Shown piece by piece: positions 1,922-52,920 of a stretch of 54,049 bases of DNA. The stretch covers positions 186,001 to 240,049 of the forward strand of contig RSEE01000100.1 of assembly GCA_003971905.1 (NCBI GenBank), given 5' to 3'. The translations under genes were made by a program, and so were the position numbers. The notes beneath the pieces are model-generated. The model was not told where the DNA came from. It saw only the letters and a list, made by a program, of their open reading frames with translations, and did not search any database. How positions within the stretch are numbered: the first letter of the stretch is position 1; every line of letters begins with the position of its first letter. Source of the DNA: Moniliella sp. 'wahieum' (Eukaryota).

Positions 1922-2422
1922 GGCAGGGGGGCCATAGACGGAGGGTGGGAGCTGGGCGAGGAGGTGGGTGGTGGCCAGGGCGATGGAGCACGCGACGGTT
2001 TCCCTTTGCTCCCCTGGCTCGCACGCTGCCTCACACGGCCTCGCATCCGCCGCATCCCTCGGCACAAAAAAATGACGACTGCGGGCGGCGCTCGGCCGAT
2101 TATCGATTACGCTCGCCGCCGCCAGCACGGCGCCCGTGTCTGTACATGGTCTTCCGGAGATAAGGCAGCACATGGCGCTTAGGCTCAGCCGTGACTCACG
2201 CGTCACGCGCCACGTGCCACGCTTGACGCGCCGTCCGCCTTCGGCCACGGGCCCAGTCACCAACGCAAGAAGCCCCGTCCAGGCCTTCTCCTCGGGTGTG
2301 GGTTCCTGGCTGTAGGCATACAAGTCGGAGATGAGATCTGAGAAGGGCCCACGGCAATCATTGGCAATCAATTATCATTTATCACCTCGTCTTGCTCGCC
2401 TTCGGCCCGCGGCATGCTAGTA

Positions 2423-9781: not shown

Positions 9782-9946
9782 GATATCAGAACTAGATATC
9801 AAGAAGGGTAAATACCAGTACTCACGCAGTGGTGCAGTTGTTCGCTGTTTTTGATAAGGCCGCAGATATCCCGACCCAGCTCTAGGTCAGTGTGGGAGAT
9901 AAGTGGAAAGATGTTCGGTGATCGATAAGCCGATTAGAAAGATAGG
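9782..9946. promoter_or_regulatory. Cluster of GATA elements upstream of DUR3 (putative AreA/Nit2/Gln3-type nitrogen regulation)
   Basis: GATAAG at 9853, 9898 and 9924; GATATC at 9782, 9795 and 9865; GATTAG at 9932; GATAGG at 9941. All lie about 235-400 nt upstream of the ATG. Minus-strand TATATAA at 9577-9583. Confidence 0.7.
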
Positions 9947-10113
9947 TTGTTTACGCGGTTTATGGGCTTGCCAATATCATCATGCGCCGTACTCTCGGCG
10001 CAACGCGTAATTATAGCGGTTGTCTGCTGTATACTTAAGGGCGTACCCTGGTGAGCCACAGTACTGTCAAAAGTGCATAATGCAGCCCCTCAGGCTTCTC
10101 AGGGTCTCAGATG

Positions 10114-10170
10114 ATCGATGATCGATGACCGGTGTAGTTTGAAGAGCTTGAAGCTTGAAGCTTGAAGCTT
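10114..10170. repeat. 7-bp-period palindrome arrays: ATCGAT-g-ATCGAT-g-ACCGGT, then (AAGCTT-g)x3
   Basis: Hexamers start at 10114, 10121, 10128 and at 10151, 10158, 10165. Confidence 0.85.
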
Positions 10171-11241
10171 TTGAAGGGCCGACGGCCTCATCGGTCACCT
10201 GGGTCACCGCTCACCCCCCGCGCACCACCATCGCACCAATCTCCGCGCAAGCACAGCGATGATTGATTATCTCGACCACTGTGAGTGACTGCATTTTGTC
10301 TCGCCATTCATATCACCGGATCGCCTCTACTGCCTTGATTTCGCTCTCATTTTTGAAAGAAGGCATGGGCTGGTGCGGGCTGCTCTCCGGACAATGCCCC
10401 AAGCATGAAAATGTGTCCCGTAACGCGTAAAGCGTGCAAGTATACTCTTCACTTTGCTGCGGGCAGGCCGGTGACCTACGGTGCTATTTACATCAAGTGA
10501 ATGAATAGGTGCCAAATGACTTCTTCTGTTCACACACGATGTACGAAAGTCCTTACGGTGGCCAAGATTTATCCGTACGAGACTGGGAGAGCTCCTCGGC
10601 GCTTTTGCACACCAGCGTTTAGCTCCGGGAGAGAGCAAGAGCGACTATAATGCGGATACGAGCCCGCCGGGCCGGCTGCAACCGCCCCGCCCCAGCTTGC
10701 TCAACATTCTGCCCACATAGGTAGCGGCATCTGGGGTGGGGGTAACTTGCCGAGTTCGGCCTACAGCCACACCCACTGGGCCTTTGGTGCGCTCTCGTAG
10801 TGTTGTTGTCCGTTGCGAGAACAACATGCTGTGGCGCGCCCTGGCCATATGGACAAGGGCAAATTTTTCATCGGCTCATGCTGGAAACTAGATCAAATAA
10901 GGCGGGAGTCCGTTGTGCCCCCATGCACCAATCTAATAGACCCATTACTGTCGAAAAGAGCTCCACGAAGTCTGGGTTGCATGTGTGAAAAAGCATGGAT
11001 TTGCTGTGACAAGACAGCGGGAAAAGGGTTCGATTGTAGTAACCGTAGGAGAAAGAGGGATGTGATGAAAAAAGGGATGTCAGGAGAAAGAGAGATGTGA
11101 GGTGTGATTACAGGAGGCCAAAACCGGATGCTGAAAGGGAGTCGGACGACATAGAAACGAGGAGGGGGAAACGGGTAAGAGAGGTTGACCATATGCCAGC
11201 AGTCGAATGGAAGTGATTTCAGGTAGTGAGAGGTTCAAAGC

Positions 11242-14200
11242 TCAAGCTTCATTTGAGCCCACGGGCTTTGAAGCGCGCTTGAAGGAGAGCCGGCCCAGCA
11301 CTCGGCGGCACCCCGCAAACGGGTTCAAGGAAATGTTGCTGCGCTTAGTGAGCCAGAAGATGGGACAGGCAACGCCTGAAGCAGCGATCTGTCACGAACC
11401 ATAGGTTAGCCTTCTGTACACAGTACACACACGACTGGAGATAACGCACAAAACAAATCAGCACGCCGAATGCAGTCCACGGTAATTGAAGGGCATGTCC
11501 AGAGTCTTGAGGAAATCATCGCCAGTGGCGTACTGGCAGTAGTCACACAAGTCCGTCGCGTTCGGGTTGTAGATCCGGCCGCCGGCCTCGGTAGCCCAAG
11601 CGCCAGCGTACTGCCCACATGTTTGTCCTGGGGGAGGGATAAAGTGGAAGAGATCAGAGCGGGCACACCACTTTCCGACCGTGTAAAATGTTGCCCACTT
11701 GGCCTCGGACGTAATGGGCGATAGGGTTAGCCCAGTACACCGCCTTCCAGATCCCAGGAAGAGAGCATGTGGAATGACGCTGCAAACATGAGGGTTAGTC
11801 ACGATGAAAGCATGTCATGGAACGGCATACTTACACTCCGTTGGCAATAAAGAGCAAGGGAAGGACCAGTGGTACACCCTGGGACGCGATAGTGGCAGTC
11901 GGTGCGGTGCACGCGACGAGAAGGAGAAGACCAAAGCATAAACCGACAGGAGAAGTGTCATAAGGTAGAAGTAGCCCGCCCGCCAGGTTGCCTCGGAGTA
12001 GAATGCAATGTAGAATGCTGGGAGGAAGCTGGAGTAGGAGTCACAGTTAGCGTACGGTAACACAACATATAGTGAGAGAGGACGATAGACGTACTAGACA
12101 GTGGCAGTCAGGGCAGCCAGTGGGAGAGCGAGCGCAATCATGCTCACAATGAGCACCCACCAAGCATAGACCTTGCTTTTGTCCTCGCGAGCATCAAAAA
12201 TGTTGGTCAACTCGAACCAGCGGGCTAGGATACTGTTGATATAAACCGGAATGAAAGCAAAATCAAGATGACGAGGAAGGCCCCTCCTTGCAGCCCATGC
12301 ACATTCCAGTCCATATGAGCGTAGAGGGCGGACCCGACAAACCGGTGAGAAGTATCTGTTGTATAACAAAAAGAGGGTGTGAGCCAACAGTGCACGCAGT
12401 CAACCGAAATCGCAGACATAGGAAACGTACGAGAAAATGAGCGAGTATGTAAAGGAACGTCACGGTAAGCATCCTTGTATTGACGAATGACCACTTCCCG
12501 AATCTGGGTCAAGGCTGGGGCGGCGAATTCGCCGGCCAACTCGGGTTGACAGCATCACCTGCGAACTTGCTGCGACGGCATTCGTTTGTTCGATCATTGC
12601 TTCCACCTCGCGCCGTTCAGGGCTGGCATCCCACACCGAGGACCAGTGTCTCGTGGGTCGCGTGTGGTCGCTGTCAACTCCAAAATATATTCGGCGACGT
12701 TGTCGTTGGGTCACAAGGAGGGGCATTAGCACGTTCGAAATAGGAGCGAATCTTGTTGCTGTTGCGGGAAGCCATAGCCAATGCCTCGTCTTTGCTGTTG
12801 ACCACACCCTGGTCACCAATCTCGCCATTGTACACTACCCCCGGCCACCGTTCTGGAGAAGAAGGCACCGGTCGAATTGCTGGAACAGGTCTCACTGGGC
12901 TGGTGGATGGTGCAAACAATGGCTTGGCCGGACTGGGCCAAACGACGGAGCAAGCGACAGATTGCTGCACGCCCTGCCGAGTCCAGGCCACTGGTCGGTT
13001 CGTCAAGGAAGAAGAGCGAGAGAAGGCTTAGCGGCAAGCTCAACAGCAATTGTCACTCGTTGCGGCGCTCAATGCTCAGACCTGCACCGGGCTGGCCAAT
13101 CAACGCATCCTGCAAATCCTCCAGCTCAAGAAGCGCAAGATCTCATCCACATCGCGCATTTTTGGGCATGCGGAACGGAGTGTGGGCTTCGTAGCACGGC
13201 CGAGAACGCAATTGCTTCCCTCACCGTCTGGGTCGGGAGATGGATGTCACCCTGCATCACGAACCCGACCGTCTTTCCAAAGGATGCAGGCAATGGACCC
13301 CCGTCAACCTCCACCTTTCCTTCCATTTTCCCAAAGTTGATCCGTTGGGCAATAGCGTTCATCGCCGTGGTCTTTCCAGCTCCCGAAGACCCCATCACTG
13401 TCACAAAACGCGTCAGCTTTTCTGTTCCATACAAAGATGTGGGCGCGTACAGCCATAGGAGGAATCAACAAGCAATCATTTCTCCAGCCAGGCCGCGCCA
13501 AGCCAGAAACTTGGTGCAGAAGCTCCCTGCCATTGTCAAGGGTGAGGTTGAGTCCCTCCAAGACAGAACAGGACGGTCGTCGAAGTTCGTCTGCGGAGAA
13601 GGCATGGATCCGGCGTCGTGCGCAAATGAGGAAGACCGGGACGGTACCGGAGTACTGTCGTTATCTGGAATGGAAGACGGGTCTTTCCCTGCTTCTCCTC
13701 CAGGCATTCGGCGTAGCGCGGCGAATAGCCTCCTTGGCCCGCTTGGTGCGGGCGAAGACAGTGACTGAGGCTCCGCTTCCCCAAAATTGTCTCGGAGGCA
13801 ACGAGAGTGACCAACAAGTATAGTGCAGAGAATGCACAGGAAATCCCATGGCACGTCCAAGGTGGTTCAATTTGTAGCCATAGGCCGCCTGTAGGTAGTC
13901 TTTACCCGGCACCACAATCTCCCCGGTCGACTGCAGCCAAGAGACAGGTCTGGTACCGAGCGTCACGGAGCTCTGAGAAAGGGGCAATGGAAGTGGGAAC
14001 ACAGGGGATATTTTCCCGGAAGTTGTTGGCCATCAAAGCTTCAAGAATGTATGCCACATTTCCGACGTATGACAACCACACACCCCCAACCCATCTCACG
14101 GCGGGCTGGACATAGCCACAATAGATGAAGATGACGTTAAGTGCCAACGTGCACCATCTGTTCATGATACAGTCAGCCCCCAAAATACCTGAGAATGACG

Positions 14201-16304: not shown

Positions 16305-16454
16305 TGTGCGTGCTCAATAGATGTGGAACTCCGTAGGAACCGCAATTTAGGATGAAAGCTTGGGCTTGGCTGAAGGCGCTCAGCCTGGTGGTTTAAGGCA
16401 GCGATAAGCGAGAGGGCTTTTCCTGGACGGTATTCTTCAGCATCGGACCGATAC

Positions 16455-16461
16455 TTATATA
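16455..16461 (-). promoter_or_regulatory. Putative TATA box of the ABC transporter
   Basis: TATATAA on the minus strand about 150 nt upstream of the ATG at 16304. Confidence 0.55.
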
Positions 16462-17252
16462 CCTCGCCTCAATTGGCCTTGATCCTGCGCGAAAAGAAAT
16501 CGCACACTCAGTGGGCCACAAGTCTGGATATAGCGGGTGTAGGCAAGGAGTTATCGCCGATCGCGCCGGTCGACCGTTCGACCCGCCCGGGATGTGCAGG
16601 CGTTAGTATGAAGAAGGGTTCAGCCTGGGCGTTCAGGCTGAGTCCAGGTGTGATGCAATGGAAATATTACGTCGCCACTACTCTTGTCCTTCAGCGCTTC
16701 GCCTTGCCATCAATGATCATCGATTCTCGATCATGCACATGTGCACCTATCGATCATTGACGTTTTTTAATATGTTACACGTGAAACCCGTCAAACATTG
16801 GGCGTTGCACTGACATGTAACAGGCAATCTTCTCCCGCCGGCATCGGCTAGCACTCGGCCTCGGCCTGAAAGGACGCGGACCTCGAACCGCCTGACGCGT
16901 TACCTCGGCGGTTTCTGCCATGTCTTAGATGCATTGGTTCTCCGGATGCCGCCGTACGCTGCACGGGTGCCCCCCCCCAGGGCTTAGTCAGGCTCAATCC
17001 CGGCTCCTGGAACACGGCGATTGCGGACTGTTACAACCGCTCCCCCTCGGTGTTTAGCAGGCGTTGCAGGCGAAGCTGGGGCCTCTGGCCCCGCTTGCAA
17101 AACTTTTCACAGGAGAGGCGCTGTCGATGATAGCATTGTCAAGACATTCCACCCATCCACCATGGGAAAACGAAAACATGCTGTGACCATGACATGTGAC
17201 GGTGAGGCGCCCCTACCGTCTCCTGCCGATGAATGATTAATGAAATTCGACA

Positions 17253-17287
17253 AGCGATAATCGATAACACGTCACGCGTCAGATCTC
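17253..17287. repeat. 7-bp lattice array AGCGAT-a-ATCGAT-a-ACACGT-c-ACGCGT-c-AGATCT-c
   Basis: Five consecutive A-N4-T-N units start at 17253, 17260, 17267, 17274 and 17281, each with a different core. Confidence 0.8.
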
Positions 17288-19788
17288 AGAAGGCGCCTTC
17301 GACGTCCAGCGCGCTCAGCCTGTGAGGCTGAGTACTCCAGCTGAGTGCACCCAGAGTGTGGGTTTCGATCCGCTACTGAGTGTACTGGAGTCTCAGTACG
17401 GAGTTACTGAGCCTTCACTGACAGCGCGTGGCCACTTGTGATATACGCAACTGGGACCTGTTACATAGTGACAACTACCACAACAGAGAGAGGCCATGAT
17501 GGTGGCGACAGCAGCAGATCAGGGCCCTTTTTTGGCTCCACCATTTCCCCCCCAAATCGGATCTTGTGTGGGCGAGTACACGGGTGGACGTGGTGGATAC
17601 ATGAGTGCGGGTGAGCGCCGCGGTGATGCATCCAAGAAGCGTGCACTTATTCGACTTCTCGATGGTTGTAACATGATCATGTGGGCGTTAAATTTTGGTC
17701 GTACAGTGCCTTCCCGTCTCCACACGCCATGCTTCACACATAGCGGCACCAAAAGGGGGGGGGGGCACGTAAGTTGAGCGCTCGTTGAGCGCAGAGCGCC
17801 TCTTCTGAGAAAGGCCTGATAAACTATTTCACATTTTTCTCACGACAAAATGCATATCCATACTTGAAGCGTGAGCGCTTGAGCAGCCCACATGCAGCTT
17901 TCCTTCCCTGGTGGGATATGTCTCATCGTGTACCACACTTTCGGGGACGCATATATGGCCTTCCTTGTCCCCGAACTCCTTGAGCCCTTCGACCTGTGGT
18001 CCACCAGGGCCCTCCGTTCCTCTCCTGCGGGTGTGGCATGCACATGTGAAGCTTGAAGCTTGAAGAGGCCTGAAACTCGAAGGATCACCGGCACCGGTCA
18101 CCTGAGGCGTAATTAATGATTGTCGCAGCCACACCGGTCACCCGAGATCATCGATCAAGCTGAGTTTTGTCAAGCACACAACAAACCAGAACTGCAATGG
18201 CATGCAACACTACTGTGGGCGTTCAGTGTTATGGAGAAGGGCTCATTCGTACCCACGCGCTACCTCCGGTTTGGAAGAGAGTAGCGGCGTCGGAGGGTCC
18301 TGACCTACTGGCGGATCCGCTGACTTCTTAAACGGTTTTGACACCGCAGTACTCCGCGGATGAGCCGGTCGGTTTTGGCCGTTTAATAACCCCGTTTCTT
18401 AATGCGTAAACGTTAAACCCTGGAAATGACATGACTAGTGACTGCGCACATTATGTGGTGTGCAGGACTATGGTGGAACGGTGGAAGATGTATAATGATC
18501 GAGATCAAGCAATTGCCTCTTAAGGACTTGGTCCTCTTTCCAGAAATGACTGGGATGACTCGATGGCCGCGGAGATTCTGTGACCTTACACGTTGACCTA
18601 TATGATGGTCATGCATCACTGCTGACCGAGGTGGAAGTGACCTCGTGTGTGAATCACACTTTTTTTTCGACGTGTGGCGTTTTCGACTCCATGATAACTT
18701 CTGGATTCGCCACCGCCTTCGGATGTCCATGGACCACCATCTCCATTTGCTCTGCTCTTGAGCTCCTCCTGATGGACGTTAATAGATGCTGGACCCTTGG
18801 TTACACGGTTACTTGCATTACATGTTACACGTTACATGATCGATCCGGCACCTGCTTGGTCAGGCGCCTGACTGGTGGTCCTATGATTCCCTCCTCTCCT
18901 TCTTTCCTCTACCTGGTCAGGCTTATAGTAGTCCACTGGGCATACCACTGTCCGTATCAAGCTGCATTTGAATCACCATGGCACTCAGTGCTGCTGTCCC
19001 AAGATTTTGTGATAACTCGAGGATCAGACTGCTAGAGAGTGCGACTTAGGAAGAGATATTCCTACCGGCTCCAGCGTGAAATCTGGGAAGAAGAATGCGC
19101 CACAAGGACCCCCCATTTGGGCCACCGGCGCCACTACACCAGTGTGGCACCCCAGAGACTGGCTGCGAGATGTCTGAGCCAATAATAGAGACTAGTATTA
19201 GTCCGTGGGGTCTCTATGAGACTCAAGTTAGGGCGAAGCGCAAAGCCCCGGGACATGTGATACATGTAATGTACAGCGACTGTTCATTAACATTGGCGCG
19301 GAGTTTACCGTAGTAAGGCTGCGGTAAACAAACGCTGAGTTATAACCTAGCCTGCTCAGCGCTGAGTATAGAAGCGCTGAGCCGCGCTCAAAACGCCATG
19401 TCGGCCACCCTGGGATCATCGAGATCATCCTCTACAAATCATGACCACCCCCCCCAGCCAGATTGCAGTCGAGGCGGCAGCCATCTTGTTGATGAGTAAA
19501 ACGTGGCTCATCGATCATCGGGCTCGTCGAGCTAGATCGACGGGCTGGCGTGTGCCGCTTGTTGACGCCAAGCCCCCGTTTAGGAAACCAGAGAAATCGC
19601 CAGCAGGTCAGGACACTGTTAGGACGACCTTCTTCGGCGCAATAAACCACAGCTCCATGTATACGGGACTCGGAGCTCAGATCGGACCGAAGCCATGGTG
19701 ATCCTCTCGATCGCGTGTATCCATACCTTTCTGTGCCCCTCAACCCTCAACCCACGCCTCAGGCCTCATGGTCTCATCCTTATCCTCC

Positions 19789-22067
19789 TCATCCTCCGCC
19801 TCCACATGCCCTTTCACTAGGCGCGGAGCTTCCGCATCCTCCAGCTCCTACGCTCCCACACTGTCCACGGCCCGCACACGACGCGAATCCGCCTATGGAG
19901 GCACAGCCACCTGAACCACATGAGCCTGCACCCACCCACCACACCACCACAGGTCCCAGCTACGCACCCTCCAGGACATCGCTGTCCACGGCTGCGCACG
20001 CAGGGTTGCCTGCATACATGCCCGAAGCTGATCCGGCCGTGATCCACGGGTCGGGGCGGTAGGGAGCAGCATACGGTACGTACGCAGGATAGATACCCCA
20101 GGCCAACGAGCTGGTCTCCGTTTCGCCCCCCATATGTTCCCGTTTCTCATCCGATGCCGGGACGAAAAAGCAAGCCTCGTTGTGCCGGCGCCGTTTTGTT
20201 GCCTCAGCCTGGGAGAGGAGACGGAGGCGCCTTACGGTTTCTTGTTGTTGTACAATCGCTTCATTCCCCTCGGTCGGGATGGCATTGTGGGCCGAAATGT
20301 GGGGAAAGTGTTTGGGCCGGCTGGGGTGGGTGGCGAGGTGGGCATGGAGCGCATCTGAGTTGCTTTGTGTGAGAGGCTGTCGAGGACGAAAACAAGAGGG
20401 CTGGAGAGATGCGGTTGGTCTGGCCTTCCCGTACAGCTTCGCAGTACCAACAGGTACACTCTGAGTACGGCTGACCATTGGTCAACTTGGTGTATCGCTT
20501 GGCGGTGAGCTCAAATCCATCGCTCAACCTACCCGAGGCGACCTTGTCGTCATGGTTGATCATTCGCTTCATATGGTGCTTCGTGTAGCAGTAGTACCGT
20601 TCCGGCGAGAGTTGGTGGGTGTGCCAGGCCAAGTCAACGTCGAGCGTAGGCACCGCAAGATCCCCCGGATACTGTTTGATAATATTAAGAAAGTGGTGTA
20701 CTTGTTGATCAATCGGGCAATCGTTTGATCCAGTGCAAATGAGTGCAGCCAATCAATCTCGTCCATCTTCCGGACAAATGTACCTTGTCGTAGCACAGCC
20801 CCGACCAAGTCCAGACCAAACGGCGACGAGTTTTCCCAATAGCGCGACATCATTGATCGAATACTGACGCGTCGTACTTTGGCAGTAGCCCGGGTGACGG
20901 GTTGACATTGTCCTACAGCTCGTAGAACCGCTCGGTCCGAGCAGCCCGCCTGGATCACATCACGCACGATGGCCATGGTAATGTGTGGATAAATGCTGAG
21001 ATCGAGCTTCTGAGTGAGCGGGGCTCTGACCCCGTACTTCAAAAAGTTGCTCCCATAGGACTGGAGCATGATTCTTCGGCCGGTGCCTGGAATACGGCCA
21101 TCAACGCAAAGATGGTTCCCGGCATCGCCTCGTCCCACGACTTGAGCTCGCAAAGTCGGCGCGAAACTTTTCCACACGCAGGTCATCGTGGGTGATACAA
21201 GAGCCACAGGAAGTGCAGTGGGTTACCATGTTGTAATCGGTAAAGCCGCGAGTGGCGTGGAACCAAGGTTTGTCCAAGTCGCCCAGTCGCCCCCGGTCGC
21301 CCACGGTACCTCTTGCTCATTCTTGCAGCGTGGACACTTGATTTTCTTACCGGCCTTGTCTTCCTGGTTGCGCCAGGTACATCCTGTGGCCCGTTCAAAT
21401 GCTTCGGCCGCCTCGGCAGGAGGGAGATAATCAAGCGAATCGTTGATGCAGGCATCAATCAGTGCCCAAGGGAAGCCTGCTTTCCACACCTGCATGTGCC
21501 CCGTACGAAGGCAATCTTCAAGATAGATGACGGGATTAAGGCAAAACGCATGCCAGACCATTAGTACATCGAGTGGAGGGAGATTCTGGGTGTTCCACAG
21601 CGGCGAGGCCGACGGCGAGGGGGTGGTATTCATGGCCTTTTCCATGTCAGTGGCCGACTCCACCATCTCCACCGTGAGGACCGTGCATGAGGAGGGTAAG
21701 CAAGCATTCCAAAACCGCTCAAACCGATCTGCCGCTCGCGCCACGTACACCGCCCAGCGCTTTTCTCGCATCAACGCCAAGCCTCTGTTTCGATCGTCCT
21801 GACTCCTAAACTGAAATAGCACGTCCTCATCGCGCAGCCCAAACAGACCATCCACATGGGCAATCGAGTCTCGCAGATCGGCAAAGACAGCGAGCAGGCG
21901 TAAATGGGCAACGCATTCGTCTGCTGTGATGGTCTGTGTGGTGTCGTTGGGGGCGATGCGGGGGAACGTGCGGAGAGGTAATGGTAAGCTGTAGGGCGGC
22001 GGAGGGTCGTCGGGAACTGGGGCGAGGGCGGGGGCCCCTTCTCGGTTTTGGAGGAGGTGGCAGTCAT
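19789..22067 (-). CDS. Glycine-rich domain-containing (GRDP/DUF1399-like) protein, copy 1; frameshifted
   Basis: Motifs: REKRWAVYVARAADRFERFW, LPPLDVLMVWHAFCLNP, SPFGLDLVGAVLRQGTFVRKMDEIDWLHS, AVPTLDVDLAWHTHQLSP, INHDDKV, YSECTCWYCEAVRE, HISAHNA. The Cys/Gly tail ends ...ERACGGGG*. Confidence 0.88.
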
Positions 22068-23649
22068 AAGAGCGGTGAGGCTACTCGGCGTTAGTGCGAT
22101 GGGGCAAGTGCTAGGCGGGAGTGCGGTCGAAGGGGTTGAAAGGAGGGGGGGAGAGGGCTCAGTCGACGGGAGATGAGTAACTGAGTCCCAAGTCAAGAGA
22201 GAGGGGACAATGGTTGATGGCAAGGTAAAGAGAGGTGAGCAAGAGAGACCTCAGGTATGCCCCAACAAAGAGTGAGGTCACTGCTGAGAGATTGATAGGA
22301 GTGGCCGATGGTTTGGCCGGAGGTTCTTGCATCGCGGTACTCAGTGCATCCGCAGTTGCGGAGGAAAGCCACCTGGATGCCATCGGCACGGGAAAAGGAT
22401 ACAGGCCCAGTGCCCCTGCTTGGCAGGCACACTGGTCCTCTGCATCGCATCTCAGATCTCCACAATCTCACTTTGACACGCCCACATTTTCCGCAGCCGA
22501 GCATAGGAGTGTGGTGCTGTGGCTGCTAGCCGTATCCACATCGGGTCTACCACCGGCAGATAAAGTACCGATGTTCAAATGTCGTAACTGGGAAGCGCTG
22601 GGGCAGCTGATGAAGTGACATCGCACACGCTCACGCCCATTGCCACCGCCCCCCACTGTCTCCGCAGCCGACACGGAGGCATCCTGTGCTGGCGACGTTT
22701 ACTAGTACACACAAGTGACGCGTTACGCATTACGGAGCGCAATTACTAAGCCTATCCCATGGGGTACCTACTCTGTTAACCTTGTGTAGCTAACTCTACT
22801 ACGTACGTACTGACTCAACCCAAGCACTAATAAACAGGGTTCTTAGATTTTCCACGCTACGCCCAGCTGCGCCTTTGTGATGCAATGCAAGTGAATGGAG
22901 TTGTCGCCGGTCTAGCTGGGCTACGTGAAGGTTTGGCCTCCCGGGCAAGCTGTCGGATCAGTTGATCACCCAGCTCGAGCAGTGTTCCATTTTTGTGGAT
23001 GGGAACATGAACGGTGAGGCCGAAGGAGGAGAGGGGGCGTGGGTAAGCGGAAAGCGAAGCCTGAGAAGAATGAACAAAATCAGGGGATGGTAGTACAGAG
23101 AAGAACGCGCCGAGGCGGGGGGTGGGGGTGGGAGCACATCGGTTGGTTCGCGCGTGCCGCTGCCCCCCCCCCGACTCTGGGCACACGACGAGAAAAGCCC
23201 AGGCAAGTCGTCCGAGGCTCGTCGTTCGAGGATGGTAAGGGGGCAGGAAGACGTAGCCACTTGGCCCAGGGAGGGGAGAATCCGGTCTGGGTAGGTGCAA
23301 GGTGCACGCGTCACGCCAAGGACGGGCTGCGGAGCAAGCCGACTGGCCCGCTGCGAACGAAAAGACGGGATTGCCCGGATACAGTGGGAAGAGAACAGGG
23401 AAAATGGAAGGGGTAGTGACCGAGAGCCGGAGGGGGGTCATGAGGAAACGAAATGGGGAAGGGTGAGATCTGAGAGTCCTGAGAGAGTGAGAGGCAATCT
23501 TGGACCAGAGCATCTGCCGAGAAGACCAACACGGGCAAATGAGAAGCCCGATCGATCGGTGTGGAGAGAGCGGTCGAGGTGAAGGTGGATGGTGATGGGT
23601 CGGGAGGTGAGCTAGCGTTGATCAAGGCAGAGGTCCAGAGAGATGGCAG

Positions 23650-24924: not shown

Positions 24925-25276
24925 GGGGGGCAGGCGGGGGCGGGGGCGGGTGGGCGGGGGGGGAGGGGTAGATGTGCGGAGAGGAGACCAGGGCTGGGAG
25001 TGCTTGAAGCTTGACGCCGGCTGAACACAGGGTGGCTGTGTTCTCCACCCCTCAACCAAACCACGCCAACCACAGCAACACCCGCCAACACCGCCAACAC
25101 CCTCCCTCCACACGCGACCCTGCTTACCTAACCCTGAACATTTCAGCCTGCTCTTCTTCTTCAGCCCGAGCGCTGATCTCACCGATGACGCAGCCGAGGG
25201 TTGACGTTGACCCGCTTACCCGCCGCGTCTTTTTTCTTCGCTGCCTTCCGCCCGTCACGCAGTGCCGGTGGGAGCC

Positions 25277-29188: not shown

Positions 29189-30071
29189 GGGCGGGGAGGG
29201 CGTGGCCGAGGAGTAGCTGCACGCTGCGTTGCGTTCCAGAGGTGGTGTTTGCTCTGTCGAGGCAGCCACGGGGAGCAGCAGGGGGCGCCGCAGCCCGTCG
29301 GCCAGCCACGGCGCCTATCACGCATTGTGCGTCTGCATCATCCGCGCGTCACCGACTGAGAAAATACTCACCGGCCATCCGCATCCCACACCGCGTGGAG
29401 CAGGCGCCATTCCAGTGTGCCTTTTGGTTAGCGCACCGGCCCTGTGCCTCTGCACGCGAGCATTCGCCTCTGGGAGCCTCTCGCCTGCCTCTGCTTTTCC
29501 TTGCTCGTTTCAAATTTGCTTTTAGCTTTCACCGGTCACCGGTCACCTTCCGCTTAGACCTTCCATCTTTCATCTTCCCTCTGTCAAGTTGCGCATTTCA
29601 AATTGCGCATTTCACCCCCTCGCAGATCGCGCATCCACTGGCCTCTTGTCTTGTCTACAGGGAGACGGCGCTCCAGTCCGCCCCCACCCCACATCCGAGA
29701 TGGCTGACCCGCTCCGAGCCTCCCTGCCTGCTTTCTGCCCCCCAAGCATCGACCTGCACGTTATCGTCCCAACCTAGAGCCTACCCTATTATGTGTTAGG
29801 CATGCCAGGTCCAGAGAGCAGAAGCAAAAATGTCCGTGCGAATGATATTAGGACGTCGGCAGGGTGGTATGGCCAGCCAACACAGAACACCATATATACG
29901 CGTCTCTGAGGGCACTTCCCACCATTACCAACCAAAACGACCCAGGGAAGTCCCGGGGGAGGGGGGAAAAGAAAAAGACAGACAAGTCACAAATCAACAT
30001 CCTAGCTGCACAACATATCCATGCCCCGCCCCTCCTCCGGCGCACACCCAGCGTAGCAGCAGCCGTACGGA

Positions 30072-30572: not shown

Positions 30573-31381
30573 TGTAGTGTTGGGAGTACAACGGGGTAGG
30601 GGAGGGAGAGGTACTGAGTGTAAGGGAGATGAAAAGGTGGAGGTGAGAAGGGAAGAGGAGACGGCAACGCAGAGCGAGTGGAAAGAGGGGGAATTATAAG
30701 AGCGAAGCTCAACCCTAGCAGGCCCCAGGGCGGTTTCTTGTTCGTAACGCGTAACGTTCGCCCGAGGAGCCACAGATGGGCCGCTCTGGGTGCTCGCTCG
30801 CGTCGGGAGCGCAGGACGGGGGCAGTATGCAGACGGGCCAGCCACAGCCAGCGGCAGGTCTGATAGGTCTTGTAGCTGCCGCCCCCTCGGCCTCATGGGT
30901 GCATGGGGTAACTATCAGCACATCAGCACATCAGTCAGCCATGCGATCAGCGACGCGAGCGACGCCGGTGCTAGAACCGGGGGAGGCGTCTGATGCATGA
31001 TGTCCTTGCCCTGCCACACAGGATGGGCTGAAGCCGAGCGGGGGTGGGCGAGCGGGCGGTGAACCTGGGAGCGAGAGCTGGGGAAGCGCAAACGGGGCCA
31101 TGACGCAAATTGCGTCATATTTCACATATGAAAGTTTCATGTCAGTGCCTTAGGCCTTAGGCCTTACGGACCTTGTGGCGCCGATGCACCACTTCCTCTT
31201 GATCTAATGCTGCTTCTTGTTGGTGGCCACTGAGTGCCCGATTTCAAGCCGGCTGGGGGGAAGAAAACTATACACTTAACCGTTTTGAAGACCCCCGAGA
31301 CCCACAGGTTCCCGTGCAAGTCACCGGGACTAGTCCCTTGGTCACCTCAGAGGCGCCCTCAGACCACGCTCACTTGTACTA

Positions 31382-31428
31382 ACAGTTGAAGGTTGAACTT
31401 CAACGTTGAACGTTGAAGCTTGAACCTT
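31382..31428. repeat. 7-bp lattice array ACAGTT-g-AAGGTT-g-(AACTT-c)-AACGTT-g-AACGTT-g-AAGCTT-g-AACCTT
   Basis: Read directly. One unit is 1 nt short. The units at 31402, 31409, 31416 and 31423 are in exact register. Confidence 0.85.
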
Positions 31429-31802
31429 CTGGCTCCGACTAAGAACACTACATTCGTCTCATCGGTAGAGCTGAAGGTAGGAATGCCCATTTCGATCATC
31501 GATCATTGCACAAACAAACGCTGCGCCTATCAGGCCCTCAGGTGTAAGATGTAAGACTGCTCCATGTCTCTGCAGTCTAGGACAAGATTCGGAAGAATCA
31601 CATACAGGTGTGGCCGACGAAGACCTGGTAGCTCTCCGAGGTAAGTTTGGACGTTAGGTGCGGGGCACTGGGCGCTGGATTCAGTCGCCAAGGGTGGAGG
31701 AGGGGGGGGGGGTGGAAGGTACAAAAGATAGGCTCAAGCAGATTTTCGTAGTGTGGGAGAGCATCTACAGCGAAATGGAGCAGGGGCGAAAGGAAAGGAA
31801 AG

Positions 31803-33531: not shown

Positions 33532-33781
33532 GGATGGTGGATGCGGGTCCAGAAGGCGAGCGGCAACGCAAGCGCCGCCCTGGCTGCTTGCCTGCGGCGT
33601 GCTACGCAGCACCGCTCGCCAGCCCCGCGGGCGCAGGAGAAGGATGACATAAGACAGTGGCCCTGTGCGCCCAGCCCACGCAAACCCACTGGGCCATATG
33701 CAACCCTGAATCTACCTATCAGCGCAGCAGCCTTCGCAGGCCATGGCCGCGCTTGCAATTTCAAGCGCCCCGTCCCCGCTC

Positions 33782-33815
33782 ACATGTCACACGTCACGTG
33801 TCACGCGTCACGTCA
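33782..33815. repeat. 7-bp lattice array ACATGT-c-ACACGT-c-ACGTGT-c-ACGCGT-c-ACGTCA
   Basis: Units start at 33782, 33789, 33796, 33803 and 33810, about 250 nt upstream of the LAS17 ATG. Confidence 0.85.
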
Positions 33816-34714
33816 TCATGCATCATCGCGCATCGACGTCATCCTCACCGGCATCGGTCACACCTCTGTCACTGCATGTTTCTCTCGACTACTGTACCAT
33901 CCTTTGGATGGCCGCAGGCTAATGGGACAAAGCGACCGAAAAGCAGACCAGCCATAATCTCACCACCCTCTCCAGGTGCCACGAGTCGAAGTCCATGCAT
34001 CCAACGCTGTTACGCTGTCTTGATGGGAGAAAGGAAGCCACCTCCCTGTTGCCGGCATCCGCCACTCAGACTGAGGGTTGTTTTGGCAAAACTCAATCGA
34101 GAGAGAATGTGTACAGTCGGCGTGCGTGCGTATCGACATTGGGGCTGCTCCAAAGCAGATCTGGCCAGAGGTTGCATGGCTTTCCACTCTACAAAATCCT
34201 ATTGCCAAAGGTACGACCCATCATTTGATGAAGACTTTTTGTAATAGGTGCCATGTAGGCAAGTAGCTAGACGATGGGGGGGGTAAGCTCCCACAGCCAA
34301 TGTTAAACGTCAAACGTCAACAAACGTTAACGAGGAACCGTTTACAACGTTTAGTCCTTTCCCGGTCCTCCTCCGTAGCGCCACATGCACATCCTGCCAT
34401 CGAGCCGTCCTTCGGTCGGGGTTGGTGGTAACTAGGGCAACTCCGGTAACTGTGCCAGTGCCCCCTGGTGGCTCGTTTGCCAGGGGTTGATGAGCAGGCC
34501 GAGAAGGCCATTCGGAGCTTGGCGACACAGTCGTTCGGCTCGTTTGCGCGCACCTCGCTGCGCCGACGATGAGAATGTCAGTACTATCGTACTGATGAGT
34601 AAGTACTAAGTAGCACTGCGACGGCGTTGCTGCGACTTGCTCCCCATCCCGAGACGATAAGATGATGGATGGATCGGTGATGCGGCGTCGTTGGGGTCGG
34701 AGTTGGACTGGATG

Positions 34715-34769
34715 ATCGATGATCGTTGCGCAATGATTAATGACGCGTGATGCGTTATGCGTTACCGGA
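34715..34769. repeat. Longest 7-bp lattice array (8 units)
   Basis: ATCGAT g ATCGTT g CGCAAT g ATTAAT g ACGCGT g ATGCGT t ATGCGT t ACCGGA, with units at 34715 + 7n. Confidence 0.8.
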
Positions 34770-35341
34770 TTTCCGGTTAGGGGCTCGGCGCTCGGCCTTA
34801 GGCTTAGCTCAGCCTCGGGTGTGATGCATGTGAGGCCGAGGTACCTGCGTCGGCGTGGGGCCACAAATCGCCTGACAGGAACAGTTGATCGCTGCTGGAT
34901 CGCTTCGTCCAGCACGCCCCGCGCGCCGCGCTCGCGCCCAGTCTCGCGCCCTCTTCTGTTGCTCGTTGCGCACGTTGCGCTCGTCGCGCTCGTCGCCCCT
35001 TTCGTCACTTTTGCGATCTCAGGCCCTACCATCAACGTACCCTTCTGCTCGTCTGCGCCATCCCAACCCCCCCTACCCCCCCTGCCTACTACTTACTGTT
35101 GTACTGCGAGATAGCCACAACATTGAATGTCGTCCCACATCCTCCCATGTCAGAGCACCTGCCGTCCAACTCCGAAGACAGTACCCCGCACTCGACATAT
35201 TCTCCCGCCGTCTCGCTGCCTCTCCTCTTCTTTGTACCACCACCACTCCTGGCCGGCGGGTCGTTTTCTACATCTCCAACTGCACTTGCCTTGCACTTGC
35301 TCACCAACCCCCCTCTATCCCATCACTATTACCCCTGCAAC

Positions 35342-37608
35342 ATGCCCTCCGAGACCGCCTCTTCCCCTCCCCCGCCCTCTGGCCCAGGCGAAGCTCCTCC
35401 GGCCTACGCCCCGCACCGCCGCACCTTCCCCCACATCGCTGCCAGCGACACCTCCAAGACCGTCACGCCTGACGAATGTGTTGCTCACTTGCGTCTGCTC
35501 GCTGTCTTTGCCGACTTGCGCGACTCGATTGCCCATGTGGATGGCTTGTTTGGGCTGCGGGACGAGGATGTGCTGTCCAAGTTTGAGAATGAGGACGATC
35601 GCAACAAAGGCCTCGCGTTGATGCGGAGAAACGGTGGGCGGTGTATGTGGCGCGAGCGGCCGATCGGTTCGAGCGATTTTGGAGTACTGCTTGCCGTCAT
35701 CGGGGCCTGTGATCACAGTGGACACTGTCGACCATCCCACTGGTTTGGCCGATGCCATGAAGAGTACCAGGACATCATCCGACCCGCCACTGTGGACCAA
35801 GAACAACTTACCGCCCCTCGACGTGTTGATGGTCTGGCACGCGTTCTGCCTCAATCCAATTACCTATCTCGAAGACTGTCTCCGTACGGCCCACATGCGG
35901 GTATGGAACGTGGGGTTCCCCTGGGCTTTGATTGACGCCTGCATCAACGATTCGCTCGATTACCTCCCTCCCGCCGAGGCGGCTGAGGCTTTCGAACAGG
36001 CTACTGGCTGTCTCTGGCGCAACCAACAAGATGAGAGAGGCAAGAAGATCCAGTGTCGCGCTGCACACAACAGCAGGAAGTCCCCTGGGCCACCGGGGGC
36101 CCTTGGGTAAACTCGAAAAGCCGTGGTTCGATGCTACCAAGGGGTTTACCGATACGAACTTTCTTGTTAACTGCGCGTCATGCAGCTATCGCATCACGCA
36201 CGATGATCTGCGGATGGCCAAGTTCCGTGCCGATTACAGTCAACTTTCGACGGCCAAGGTTGCCATGCCTGGGACCATTCTCCCGTTTGATGGGCATCCG
36301 CCGCACGAGCCGTCGATGGTGATGCGACAGTCGTATGGGAGCCACTTTTTGTTGGACGGGGTCCCAATGACGTTGGGAGAAAAGCTCGACTTCAATGCCT
36401 ACCCCCACCTTACCATCAACGACGTGCGGTATGTGCTCGAGAAAGGGTGCGCCTCTCGTGCGACGCTACGTAAGGTAGGAGGCTCCCAACCAGTCCGGCG
36501 GGATGTGGCCATTGCACGGCGCGTCAGCATTCGGTCCATGATGTCGCGGTACTGGGAAAATTCGTCTCCGTTTGGGTTGGACTTGGTGGGGGCCGTGTTG
36601 CGCCAAGGAACGTTTGTCCGCAAGATGGACGAGATTGATTGGTTGCACTCGCCTGCATTGGACCAAACCATGACGCGTCTGATCGACAAGTACTCAGTCT
36701 TTCTCTTGATCATGAAGAAGTACCCTGGTGACATGGCGGTGCCGACGCTTGACGTCGACTTGGCCTGGCACACGCATCAGCTCGCCCCAGCACGGTACTA
36801 TTGTTACACGGTGCACCATATGCAGCGGATGATCACCATGACGACAAGGTATCCTCAGGTCGGTTGAGCGATGCGTTTTGAGTGACGTCGAAGCGCTATA
36901 CCAAGTTGACCAATGGTCAGCCCTACTCGGAGTGTACGTGTTGGTACTGCGAAGCGGTCCGGGAAGGCCAGACCAGCCGCGTTTCACCTGCCCTCTTATT
37001 TTCCCCTCCACCGCCTCGCACGCACGAACCAACTCGGACGCTCTCCATTCCAATCCCAACGTCCACCATGACAATCCCGAACGCAACGCCCACATCTCGG
37101 CCCACAACGCTGTGCCGACCGAGGGAGACCGTGCGGCGTTGCGCAAAGAAGAAGTACGCCATCGTCGGCTCGTATCCAAGGCCGAGGCTGCCCAACGGCG
37201 CTTGCACAAGCGCGGCTTACTTGTCGCCTCGCCCGACGAGAACGCAGGCGGGGCGAGTCGGAAGCCACCGCGATGGCCTGGGGCATCTACCCGATCTACA
37301 TGCCCTACTACGCCCCTTACTACCCCGACCCATGCATCACGCCGGCTCAGGATCGGGCATGTACCCGTGCAACCCTGCGTGTGCTGCCATGGGCGCCGGA
37401 AGTGTGGGCGCATGTGTGGCGGGGCCTGTGGGGGTGCTGTGGGCGGGGCGGGTGTGGGAACGGTGGTGCGGCTCGGTGGGTGGATTCAGCGCGTGCTCCT
37501 CAGCTGGTGGATGTGGGAGCGGAGCGGCGGCGGTGGATGCGGAGGCGGAGGCGTGGCGGTGGATGCGGTGGCGGTGGCGGAGGAGGAGGCGGGTGCGGGG
37601 GATGCTGA
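35342..37608 (+). CDS. Glycine-rich domain-containing (GRDP/DUF1399-like) protein, copy 2; frameshifted
   Basis: Motifs: ECVAHLRLLAVFADLRDSIAHVDGLFG, LPPLDVLMVWHAFCLNP, LDLVGAVLRQGTFVRKMDEIDWLHSP, VPTLDVDLAWHTHQL, YSECTCWYCEAVRE, HISAHNAV. The tail is ...GGGCGGGGGGGGGCGGC*. It is colinear with copy 1. Confidence 0.9.
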
Positions 37609-38871: not shown

Positions 38872-39598
38872 AGGACACCAGCACGGTGCTCATCTTCCCC
38901 GCTGCCCCCTCGCCCCTCGCCTCCTGTACACAGACGTACACCTAGGTGGGGGGCCATCCACCACCGTATCTGCAATGCCATAATATTTGGTTTTCTCTTC
39001 CTTGCAGTCATTTCGACCGCAGTGGCCAGCACTGGTGATGATGCATCCAGCTCCTATCATTCACTTTCCTTCTGTTTCCTGCGTTCCTTCATCATGCACG
39101 TTGAACGTTAACGGTGCGGCCACCGGCTTCTTGGTAGGCACATGTGACAGACAACCACCACAGGGGGGTGTAGCTTGTCTTGTCGTTTGGATCTCCCCCC
39201 CTCAGTTGTCTGCACCTGGCTCTGCGTTGACGTCTGCTATCCAGCTTGCTTGGTCCCATCTAACTGGGCCCTCGCCCATGTCGGATGCTTCTGGATTGAG
39301 CACCTCCAAACTCCAGGGGGAAGAGACGAGCCGCAGGGACTAGTGTGATATGGGACGGGAGCTAGGGTGGCACGTGACGCGTGACAGGGCCGGCTGGCGG
39401 AACAACGGTCAGAGCAGAGAGCGGAATGGGACAGGTGAGGCCTGGGGGACAGTGTGTGCCAGTGTCCGAGTTGGCTGCCGAGTGCCTCCAAACCAGTCCG
39501 GTCACGTCGCGCTTTCCGCCGTGGAGCGCCATTGGCCAGCTACCACCACCACCACCACCATCGCAGCTGCCCTGCTCCGAGCCGCTGCCCCCACCACC

Positions 39599-42500
39599 AT
39601 GGCTTCGGCTGCCACTGCCCCCGCTGGTGTCAGCCCCAGGCATATGGACTCACCCTCGACACTGCCCAAGCCGCCCGCTTGGCGCCCACACAGGCCGCCA
39701 AGGTGGCTGCTCTCCAGGCCCAGGCTGGCCTGCACGCCCAACTCGATCCCATTTCCCTCGCAGACCAGAGCGCCCACGCGTATGCCCAGAACCCCGCTTC
39801 TGGTGGTGAAGTCCATGCCAACTATGTCTCTACCCTCGATCCCCAGGCCCGACCATGACTGGCGTGGACCCCCGCATGGACACTAGCATGGAACTTACTC
39901 CGGATGAATCTGTGGGTGACTACGACCCCCTATGCTGCCCAGTATGCGGCGGCGAGTATGACTACGAAATGAAGATGAAATCGACGACGACGCCGACTAT
40001 GACGATGGACGACGACCTTTCTTCCTCCCCTTCCATCCCGGACGAGAACATTGACTTTGATTTGGTTTATGCCCTGCACAACTTTATTGCTACCGTCGAG
40101 GGCCAAGCGACGGTGCAAAAGGGAAACAGCCTGAGGCTACTCGACGACTCGAATTCGTACTGGTAGGTGGAACCTGCTGGACCACTACCGTTCGTTGTGC
40201 TGACGCGTTTGTTTTACCCAGGTGGCTAGTGCGGGTCTTACCCACTCAGGAAGTCGGCTACATCCCTGCCGAAAACATTGAGAGTCCTTTTGAGCGTCTG
40301 GCCCGCCTCAACAAGCATCGTAACGTCGGCCTCTCTTCGGCGACAGCGGCGGACCAGGTGCAAGTAGAGGAGAACGTTCACTCTTCGTATTTGGTCAAGA
40401 CCCGGGAGCACCGCGTCCAACTCCACCCTTCCTCGGGCAAGCTATCGGCGCTCTCAACCCGATTGGCTGGGCAGATGCCCACACCCTTGTCCGATCGACG
40501 CAAGTCAACCGTTATGTTTGGCAACTCGACCGTGCTTGAGCTGAGTGATCACGAGGAATGGTCCGAGTCGGATGAGGAGGGTTACTACGACGACGAGGAA
40601 GGAAACGAGGAGGAAGATGAACACGAAAACGAAGATGAAACGCGATGGAGGGCGGGGGAGAAGCTGATGCGAGAGATGTGTCCGAGATGGACAATTTGAC
40701 GCCTGAACAGCGTATGATCTTGCAACAGCAACATCACAATGCTTACTTGGAGCAACAACAGCAACTCGCCCACTATGCTGCATATGGCCAAGTGCCCGAT
40801 ACGAGCCGCGACTCGGACAGCAGTGCTCAGCTTTACCAAACGGGTGGGGTGGATTACACCCAGGGTCCGTATGCGCTCCAAAATTCCGCTCAGGATGCGC
40901 ACCCTGAGCTCTCTCATGAACAGGAGCACTACGCTCAACAGGAGCAGCAGCAGCAAACCTTGTTGGCTCAAGAAGGTCCAACTCCCATGGCCCCAGCAGC
41001 AGCAATATTTCGAGCAACATCAGCAGCAACAACCGCAGCAACAACCAGCAGCAACAAACGCAGCAGCACCAACAACAACAGCTGCAGCCTACGGAATTGT
41101 CCCAGCAGCAACAATACTTCCAGTGGAATCAGCAACAACAGACGCAGCAGCAACAGATGCAGCAACAGCAGCAGCAGCAGTCTACGGATTTGACCTCACA
41201 GCTCGCGCAAGAGGGCGAGCCCAAGCCAGTACTGGAGGCGAGAGCTTTACCTCCCGGACAATCAGATGCTGGGGCACGTTTCTCCCCCGATCCGCGGGAG
41301 ACTTCACCGAGCCAGGAAGTTGGTATGCGTTCTCGCGACAGCATTGGTTCTGTGATCTCGGACACAGGCTCAGGGTCGTCCAATGCCGAAAAACAGAACA
41401 AAAAGCGGTCCAGCGTGTTTGGGATCTTCTCCCGGCATAAGAAGGAACGCCGTGCAAGCCAAGCTTCCTCGTCGGGGAGCCTGCAGTCTCAAGAAACAGA
41501 TTCGGGCGATGGGCCGGCCCAGCTGCCTTCCATCAGTGTGTCAAACTCCCATGACGCCCCGCAGATGAGCATTTCGACAGCCCCATCGGAAGGCGCCGTG
41601 CCACCCGATCGCCGCGGACGTCCTTGCAGCCTGACAATAGCCGTCATTTGTCCATCTATGGAGGGGTTCCATCGCCGGGTCCGGCGGGCCGTCCGCTTCA
41701 GGTTCCGGACGGCCTCGGCCCGGTAGTTTGGTTATCCCTCGAGGCGACGTATCGGTGCCGATGCTCAACGTGTTGCGCGTCTTTGCCGCTCCTGAACTTG
41801 ATATCAGTGCAACTACAAGACCGTCCTTCTCAACGATACGACGACAGCACACGAGATCGTCAAACAGGCAGTTCAGCGGTTTGGTATTCGCCGTCGTTCA
41901 GCTCAGTCCACCAGTACGAGCGGAGACGGCCTTGGTACCGATGGGCCGGTTGACTTTGCCCTGCTGATGCGCATGGTTGATGGGGAGGAGCGTATTCTCG
42001 CCCCCGACGAGGTCCCACTCAAGGTTTATGAACACATTACTGAGCACGAGGCTAATGCGCTCATGCCCTCCGTCCGTCGCTCCAGCGTTGGCTCCATATC
42101 ATCTGTCGCATCCAATCTGAGCGCCAAGTCGGCCATTACCAAGCTAACCATGACTTCAGCGACGACCATGCTGTCAAGTTCTTTCTCACGCGCCGAACTC
42201 GTCCTGGCATGGTAACCAGTGGATCTGCTCATTCGGTCGCGGCATCTTCTACAGGGCCACCTAGGCCAGCGGATACGGAAGCGGCAATGCGGTTCGGTGT
42301 GCGCGTCCTCATTTTCCCCGACGAGCTGCCTCGTTCTCTCGCCTTTGACCCATCTAGTTCCGCCATTGTGCGTCGGACCATGCTCTCCGGCCTTTCCCGT
42401 CACGGGAGCTCAGGAGCACAAGTCGCGGTCAATCGGATGTCAACCCGCGTTATCGAGAAAAGGTGCTGACTATCCCGCGCACCACAACCGTTGCCGAAGC

Positions 42501-52236: not shown

Positions 52237-52873
52237 GGCGATAGTGTGTGGGGAAAGGTGATGGAAGAGCGATAAAAGCAGCCAGGAAAGTGGATGGAGT
52301 GTGGCCTTACGCTGGCCAAGAGTTGAGTAGGAGGGGAGTATAAAGTAGTGAATTTCAAATAGTGCTCAGCGTTCCTTCAGCTTCAGAGCTCCGTGTGTGA
52401 CGCGTCAGCGCGTCAGCCGACGGCGGCTCAGACAGCTGAACTAGTGACTTGGCGGGCCGCGCCTGTTGCCCTATGCTGGCTCAGAACCGCAGCTTGCCCT
52501 CTCCAGACTCGCGATTGTGCCTCCCTCGGGCCTTGGCCTGAAAGGGGGGATACGTGATTAATGATTAGTCGATAACAGAGAATCCGATACCAAAATGTTG
52601 CGCACTGCGCGCTTGGGGCGGCCAACGGGGCTAGCGTAGTACTAATCGTTATACTGACGACAGCATTGACGACATGACCATTAATCGGCGCGTTGTCGCG
52701 ACATTTGAACACATTAACATCCTTTAGATCTAAGGGCCGATTATGGGGAGAATGGCAGTGAATATTGATGTCCCTGACATCCTAGTGGAAGGTGACCAAT
52801 TTCGTTACGGCGTTAGAAACACGTATCTCTAACGTCTTCTGTTGTTCGCGGTTGGGCCGTAGCGCGTAGGCCT

Positions 52874-52920
52874 AAGCCTTAGGCCTTACCGGTTACCGGT
52901 TACGGATTACCCCGGTTACC
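52874..52920. repeat. 7-bp lattice array AAGCCT-t-AGGCCT-t-ACCGGT-t-ACCGGT-t-ACGGAT-t
   Basis: Units start at 52874, 52881, 52888, 52895 and 52902, followed by degenerate CCGGTTACC. Confidence 0.85.

Follow-up and report, generated by a model that had tools for sequence, protein, structure and literature searches.

The hAT element Ac/Ds makes 8-bp duplications at the target pattern nTnnnnAn. RAG and Transib duplications are 5 bp long, and the coding joints of V(D)J recombination are diversified by nibbling and N additions. Artemis, a precedent for hairpin opening whose yeast relative is Pso2, opens hairpins ~2 nt from the tip, leaving 4-nt 3' overhangs and 2-nt P nucleotides, and PIF/Harbinger elements use the target word TWA. 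Hairpins formed on the flanks upon excision are on record for MULE, hAT and Transib elements in one account (PMC5499845). For Ac/Ds in yeasts, a second study reports flank hairpins and P-nucleotide footprints, with Pso2 affecting the outcome, and explains the footprints by off-tip opening of the flank hairpins followed by end joining (PMC5873905). Target duplications in a third source measure 3 bp for PIF/Harbinger, 2 to 5 bp for the EnSpm-like lineage group that includes Transib, 5 bp for hAT5, and 7 bp for two basidiomycete elements, hAT7 in rusts and Kyakuja in Laccaria (PMC12730594).

We describe here a lattice of short scars in a fungal window (the whole 54-kb stretch of DNA that was analysed). 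These scars probably belong with the known P-nucleotide excision footprints; what is unusual about them is their uniformity, their density and a 7-bp geometry centred on T-N-A. As with Ac/Ds in plants, S. cerevisiae and Candida albicans, a duplication is kept at what would be the empty site, and short palindromic (P) insertions are centred on the presumed former junction. The differences are that TNA lies at the middle of the duplicated 7 bp (or 5 bp), and that the scars are natural, fixed, stacked in arrays and very dense, with an element that is itself only deduced. A canonical hAT signature, with its 8-bp duplication at nTnnnnAn, is not what the window contains, period-8 matches being at background and the T and A lying 2 apart rather than 5. 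One kind of footprint dominates here, whereas the experimental Ac/Ds footprints are described as heterogeneous (PMC5873905).

Other systems share single features with the window. hAT7 of the Pucciniales and Kyakuja of Laccaria are basidiomycete cut-and-paste elements whose reported duplication length equals the lattice period (PMC12730594), but they come from other subphyla, and neither a copy nor a transposase was found in the window. V(D)J coding joints and Transib or RAG excision resemble the proposed origin of the scars in having flank hairpins opened ~2 nt off the tip; unlike coding joints, the joint here is almost invariant. PIF/Harbinger elements share the T-N-A target word, but their 3-bp duplication cannot yield the second copy of the two bases following TNA (wx) that is present in every event here.

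A 7-bp lattice outside Pfam-supported ORFs

The window has ~58% GC and carries eukaryotic nuclear DNA with fungal genes split by introns, including OPT, CLN3, a PDR-type ABC transporter, Mo25, FtsJ, a WH1 protein, two GRDP-like paralogues, Mgm1, ATP synthase g and MatE. Because the GC3 excess was not clear in the window, the coding mask was built from Pfam-supported ORFs, that is, the 27 of 192 scanned ORFs with a Pfam match (16,285 bp). The remaining 37,714 bp still include some coding DNA.

A first-pass annotation had drawn attention to hexamers of the form A-N4-T separated by single bases, best developed in an 8-unit array at 34715-34769. Its transcription of the array is identical to the sequence, and the T-N-A that it placed every 7 bp holds register in 7/8 units. 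The hexamers are strictly A-N4-T in six of the eight, whereas unit 3 begins with C and unit 8 finishes with A; perfect palindromes occur in 3/8, in keeping with the remark that cores are often palindromic. Fifteen further positions had been listed. Ten of them pass the strict expression (A....T.){3,} (10114, 10151, 17253, 18042, 22711, 29524, 31402, 33782, 52550 and 52874), four are looser T.A chains of at least three units that do not pass it (16712, 18820, 31152 and 34305), and 39377 is a two-unit site.

Across the window, the strict expression yields 15 maximal runs. The shuffle comparison recommended by the annotation reveals a clear enrichment: (A....T.)x3 is observed 22 times, against a mean of 5.08 and a maximum of 15 in 200 dinucleotide-preserving shuffles, and (A....T.)x4 seven times, against a mean of 0.26 in 200 such shuffles. 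T..A at period 7 is the top non-triplet-multiple among two-letter lattices of period 5-9 (34 vs 5.0 expected), and the T.A autocorrelation over the whole window peaks at lag 7, as had been anticipated, with a value of 1.77. The 7-bp lattice is real and highly significant, and chance as its origin is ruled out by the shuffles.

The annotation had not noticed such runs in coding sequence, and indeed the Pfam-supported ORFs contain none (1.2 expected) and a lag-7 value of 0.85 with no peak. Outside these ORFs, in DNA that still includes some coding sequence, there are 22 runs against 3.9 expected (maximum 11) and the lag-7 value is 2.04 (100 shuffles for each partition). Likewise, 0/26 of the scar loci defined below fall inside Pfam-supported ORFs, though those ORFs hold 26.6% of T.A sites (P = 3e-4). 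We propose that scars are absent from coding sequence because of selection against frameshifts.

A stereotyped insertion at T-N-A

Every lattice unit can be shown, at the level of sequence, to derive from one stereotyped 7-bp insertion at T-N-A. The canonical product reads TNAwx + x'w' + TNAwx, or in its mirror form pqTNA + q'p' + pqTNA, which is a short direct target duplication plus two bases copied inverted from the flank. Such a 5+2 product contains an A-wxx'w'-T palindrome, and its two TNAs are spaced by exactly 7 bp. When the sequence is searched without bias for two copies of any 5-mer D separated by the inverted copy of its last 2 nt, the plus strand returns 39 matches against 3.3 in shuffles, and the period-8 analogues of this search return 0-1. 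In 24 of these 39 matches D is T.A.., a class of site that makes up only 4% of positions, and the remainder are mostly the same arrays, phase shifted by one or two bases. When the search is anchored on TNA, the geometry of 5 direct and 2 inverted bases yields 49 hits over the two strands, where 0.17 would be expected; other geometries (3-8 direct, 0-4 inverted) are near background, except for perfect 7-bp tandems (20), which are arrays.

The origin of the variable cores is visible at the 86 sites where TNA is followed by four bases and the same TNA. The core is palindromic in 47 of these, against 5.4 expected, and the 47 comprise 13 different sequences. In 41 of them the palindrome half is an inverted copy of the adjoining flank dinucleotide. 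Of the 47 cores, 17 mirror the left flank alone, 16 the right flank alone and 8 both flanks; the other 6 mirror neither. The N of TNA tracks background (C 18, G 17, A 8, T 6). Both TNAs have the same N in 47 cases, while the second has the complement in 6 and 'other' in 7, and we therefore take the TNA to be copied directly, not inverted.

Since the cores are written from the flank, a sequence code and plain slippage are both disfavoured, and the cores point to a break whose end went through a hairpin. This counts against the suggestion, made in the first-pass annotation, that a polymerising or multi-module DNA-binding protein reads the lattice as a structural code. Of the hairpin/template-switch footprint that it offered as an alternative, it is the hairpin version that the mirrored cores and the 5+2 geometry favour, so that the earlier interpretation is partly supported.

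Taking out perfect events one by one leaves a catalogue of 40 at 26 loci (Table 1), with one event at 17 loci, two at 6, three at 1 and four at 2. Around them lies a decay series, in which strand hits with 0 mismatches number 49 vs 0.2 expected, those with 1 mismatch 39 vs 5.0 and those with 2 mismatches 108 vs 50. The register is kept while cores change because each event adds 7 bp at the same TNA and the core is set by whichever flank is copied, a combination that slippage, as the annotation had argued, is unable to explain. The clearest example of changing cores in one register is 17256-17290, where CGTCA-cg-CGTCA (17270; left flank mirrored) and TCAGA-tc-TCAGA (17279; right flank mirrored) share one TCA. 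In the originally reported array, further units are one substitution off perfect (e.g. TGACG-cg-TGAtG). The ATGCGT units repeated at 34750-34762 look like copies of a unit that had changed before, so slippage, or duplication free of inverted bases, makes a small contribution as well. The lattice is thus best read, from its sequence, as a mutational record and not a signal.

Table 1. Scar loci catalogued in the window; the strand field is '.' for all rows.
Coordinates	Feature	Events and sequence	Context
2098..2343	Three single events	2098, 2196, 2332	Between OPT and CLN3 genes
10110..10172	Two arrays, (TGATCGA)n and (TGAAGCT)n	Four perfect events; arrays mutually out of register	
10419..10430	Single event	CGTAA-cg-CGTAA	
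17232..17290	Multiple events	Four perfect events	
17327..17346	Non-canonical scar	GCTGAGT direct repeat; spacer ACTCCA opens with 4-nt inverted GAGT	
17773..17790	Non-canonical scar	GTTGAGC direct repeat; spacer GCTC is inverted GAGC; net +11	
18047..18065	Array TGAAGCT x2.7	Two perfect events	
18146..18157	Single event	GATCA-tc-GATCA	
18407..18443	Two single events	TAAAC-gt-TAAAC, TGACT-ag-TGACT	
18818..18838	TTACATG TTACACG TTACATG	One perfect event and a decayed unit	
19508..19768	Single events	TCATC-ga-TCATC (19508), CCTCA-gg-CCTCA (19757)	
23464..23475	Single event	TGAGA-tc-TGAGA	
25003..25014	Single event	CTTGA-ag-CTTGA	Mo25 / FtsJ divergent spacer
29529..29547	Array TCACCGG TCACCGG TCACC	Two perfect events	
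30743..31002	Single events	CGTAA-cg-CGTAA (30743), TGATG-ca-TGATG (30991)	
31148..31166	Array TTAGGCC x2 + TTACGGA	Two perfect events	
31385..31425	Array of TGAACGT / TGAAGCT units	One perfect event, one indel	
31543..31556	Exact 14-nt tandem	TGTAAGA TGTAAGA; TAA central; no inverted bases	
33780..33835	Array TCACATG TCACACG TCACGTG TCACGCG TCACG...	Perfect events 33780, 33801, 33814	Immediately upstream of WH1-domain gene
34600..34611	Single event	TAAGT-ac-TAAGT	Same divergent promoter as 34711..34769 array
34711..34769	8-unit array	Perfect events GATGA-tc-GATGA (34711), AATGA-tt-AATGA (34732), then decayed units TGACGCG / TGATGCG / TTATGCG / TTACCGG	Divergent promoter between WH1 gene (minus strand) and GRDP-like gene (plus strand)
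39373..39384	Single event	CGTGA-cg-CGTGA	Position 39377 of the first-pass annotation
52555..52566	Single event	TGATT-aa-TGATT	Upstream of MatE gene
52877..52911	Array TTAGGCC TTACCGG TTACCGG TTACGGA	Two perfect events; cores from both flanks	

We further note some sequence preferences among the scars. GC, the dinucleotide that most often follows TNA, is never the wx of a canonical event, nor are AA, AT and TA. At 17773-17790, 17872-17884 and 17327-17346, where wx is GC (or GT), 3-4 nt are copied inverted rather than 2, a hint that the sequence at the tip influences where a hairpin is opened. The TGAAGCT arrays at 10147-10172 and 18047-18065 lie 7.9 kb apart at unrelated loci with different flanks, suggesting that some TNA contexts are preferentially targeted. 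A target logo from 39 inferred ancestral sites has nothing clear outside TNA, with site tracking that is imperfect and puts T at -1 in 71/78 symmetrised rows. Two long stretches without a Pfam-supported ORF, 6700-12400 and 16400-19600, have a lower G+C of 0.50-0.55 and are scar-rich; they may represent long intergenic DNA, unannotated genes or decayed mobile DNA.

Length of the target duplication

Two descriptions suit the canonical product: a 5-bp duplication with 2 inverted bases, or a 7-bp duplication of pqTNAwx in which the second copy lacks pq. A symmetric 7-bp target, nnTnAnn, is favoured, on few loci. Three clean non-canonical scars (17773, 17327 and 31543) repeat 7 bp with TNA central, and their inverted copies are 4 nt long in GTTGAGC-GCTC-GTTGAGC and GCTGAGT-ACTCca-GCTGAGT and absent from TGTAAGA-TGTAAGA. 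The last of these, the tandem at 31543..31556, fits a 7-bp duplication in which both hairpins would have been opened at the tip. Thirteen scars have a spacer of 3-8 nt that starts with x'w'; the two bases before TNA are also repeated in 6/13, against 1/16 by chance, although two of these six rows represent a single locus, once per strand, and two belong to palindromic arrays.

A 5-bp duplication of TNAwx would explain the canonical product equally well if one hairpin only was opened off-centre, the wx-end hairpin 2 nt off its tip and the TNA-end hairpin at the tip. All canonical events are exactly 5 direct plus 2 inverted bases, as this geometry would have it, and element groups with such duplications are described, e.g. 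hAT5 and the group containing Transib (PMC12730594). It nevertheless requires an asymmetric target and asymmetric hairpin opening at chemically equivalent ends. The three clean non-canonical scars also speak against it, and products without inverted bases are 7-bp rather than 5-bp tandems; plain 5-bp tandems at TNA are not enriched (4 vs 3.7 expected). We regard a 5-bp target duplication as unlikely, if still the most probable of the rival readings.

Excision footprints as the probable source of the lattice

The lattice probably consists of the excision footprints of a cut-and-paste element, whose existence is deduced from the scars. In this model, a cut-and-paste DDE transposon would insert with a 7-bp target-site duplication centred on TNA (nnTnAnn), and would later excise, each flank then ending in a hairpin, as happens with hAT, Transib and MULE elements. 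A host nuclease would then nick each hairpin 2 nt from its tip, giving the 4-nt 3' overhangs wxx'w' and q'p'pq. Strands ligated end to end would form a top strand of pqTNAwx-x'w'-TNAwx and a bottom strand complementary to pqTNA-q'p'-pqTNAwx, both longer by 7 and holding a 4-nt mismatch bubble between two paired TNAs, and replication or mismatch repair would fix one of the two products. The site left after an event, x'w'TNAwx, is palindromic, so that the overhangs of a second event would be cohesive and arrays could grow. One TNA reused with either flank would give different cores in one register, with point mutation blurring old units.

Ligation of this kind would account for the invariant +7, the near-equal use of left and right flanks, the lack of strand preference and the growth of arrays. 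From a symmetric target with a heteroduplex joint, a near-even left/right split in particular would be expected. TNAwx is repeated in 49/49 canonical strand hits, as expected of a direct target duplication kept at an empty site. Similarly, the joint bases are the inverted flank, as P nucleotides would be, in the 41/47 palindromic cores described above, and two scars carry 4-nt copies.

Several observations weigh against the footprint reading. A single product form accounts for 49 strand hits, with a handful of alternatives, which is more uniform than experimental footprints; Ac/Ds in Candida albicans is reported to have left 28 different footprints in 128 revertants (PMC5873905). With 40 perfect events in 54 kb, the scars are dense for an element of which nothing can be seen. 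Three clean loci carry the case for a 7-bp duplication, and the target nnTnAnn differs from the hAT consensus nTnnnnAn. A search of the window for direct repeats of D5 or nnTnAnn 7-mers enclosing inverted termini found no inverted termini within matching 5- or 7-bp TNA duplications, the hits being same-unit scar arrays and chance pairs. No transposase family is among the Pfam matches of the 192 window ORFs, and a repeat search of the window found no transposon-like inverted repeat. 

The annotation had thought a lineage-wide system possible, with the heptamers of Ustilago maydis as part of it. The single distant fungal contig (L001, 7.5 kb) returned by a metagenome scan with the Mo25 protein as query (59% identity) has 0 canonical events, too small a sample to bear on distribution in the lineage, and a sequence-index search returned no look-alike stretches in other genomes.

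Four other element-based readings were rejected by reasoning from the sequence. Remnants of transposon ends would have constant cores, yet the cores follow the flank, and remnants of LTR elements would keep TG/CA constant. A 3-bp TNA duplication leaves the second wx copy without a source, and an 8-bp hAT duplication requires three coordinated trims.

Competing readings without a mobile element

A host nuclease, for example a domesticated transposase or another site-specific enzyme with TNA as its recognition word, might instead make staggered hairpin-ended breaks at TNA in open promoter DNA and leave +7 repair products, with no mobile element involved. The window in which no element was found, the unusually uniform product and the clustering of events at 26 loci, 9 of them with 2-4 events, are all in line with such an enzyme. 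However, a direct duplication of 5-7 bp needs a staggered cut and fill-in with the ends held apart, as the insertion of DNA provides, and clustering is equally expected where each scar recreates its target. No nuclease is known to us that combines target duplication with hairpin formation. This origin appears quite improbable to us.

The lattice could also be a functional signal, with a multimeric protein or dimeric transcription factors binding phased palindromes that selection keeps in promoters. The runs are non-coding and mostly upstream, units of the form T.ACGCG / T.ATGCG stand in the promoters of both GRDP-like paralogues, and some cores (ACGCGT and CACGTG) match hexamers that we take to be factor sites. 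In contrast, there are 13 different palindromic cores, which together with the decay series by point mutation do not make up a defined recognition sequence for a protein-binding array. The flank predicts the core, the N of TNA is unbiased, and frameshift selection alone accounts for the absence from coding DNA. Selection for such a signal is therefore very improbable as the source of the lattice, which is unlikely to have a function as a whole; individual scars may have been co-opted as factor sites.

Ordinary 7-bp microsatellite slippage, or chance, has next to no probability: Tandem Repeats Finder does report ~20 short period-7 arrays, and a few units (the ATGCGT units mentioned above) resemble copies of a mutated unit, but 17/26 loci hold a single event and slippage explains neither the TNA rule nor the flank-derived palindromes, so that it is refuted as the primary cause and may add or remove units inside arrays.

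Implications of the footprint reading

If the lattice does consist of excision footprints, the ~40 perfect and many decayed scars in 54 kb would be a large natural record of one DNA-repair reaction, in which hairpins are opened 2 nt from the tip and the ends are then ligated directly. They would also imply heavy transposon traffic through the promoters of a compact fungal genome by an element that is not visible. A literature search returned no description of such scars in smut-related fungi. A conspicuous non-coding 'grammar' would thereby be explained without a new code, and the unit event provides a simple rule for dating and ordering scars. Each event makes a palindrome of 6 bp, the form that binding sites of dimeric factors usually take.

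A bolder possibility, which we put forward as speculation and consider rather unlikely, is an enzyme system particular to this lineage that continually writes flank-derived A-N4-T palindromes at TNA sites in open promoter DNA. It could be a previously undescribed, very active element that forms hairpins, or else a domesticated transposase without mobile DNA, and it would thereby be a major generator of new dimeric transcription-factor sites and of promoter turnover in these fungi. If such a system exists, the near-invariant +7 joint would reflect dedicated hairpin opening and ligation, not ordinary end joining.

The GRDP-like gene pair and other features of the window

Two GRDP-like genes (PF07173), at 19986-21973 and 35419-37392, lie in inverted orientation ~13-17 kb apart and are 73-86% complementary over ~1.3 kb, in pieces. 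From this similarity, they look like an old inverted gene duplication. Their promoters (34300-35450 vs the reverse complement of 21950-23100) have no alignment beyond a short heptamer stretch. Both upstream regions, at 22700-22750 and 34727-34765, carry TTGCGC followed by T.ACGCG / T.ATGCG heptamers, which could be a remnant predating the duplication, a shared control element or a coincidence.

Three further features lie elsewhere in the window. A 12-bp tandem repeat, TTCTCGTTTTCT, is present in 7 copies with 95% matches at 6993-7074, in a gene-poor region of lower G+C. CAG/CAA-rich coding repeats at 41013-41180 specify a glutamine-rich tract within an RA-domain gene. Between Mo25 and FtsJ, a G-rich tract of ~44 nt (GGGGGCGGGGGGGC-like; 24925-24968) could form a G-quadruplex.
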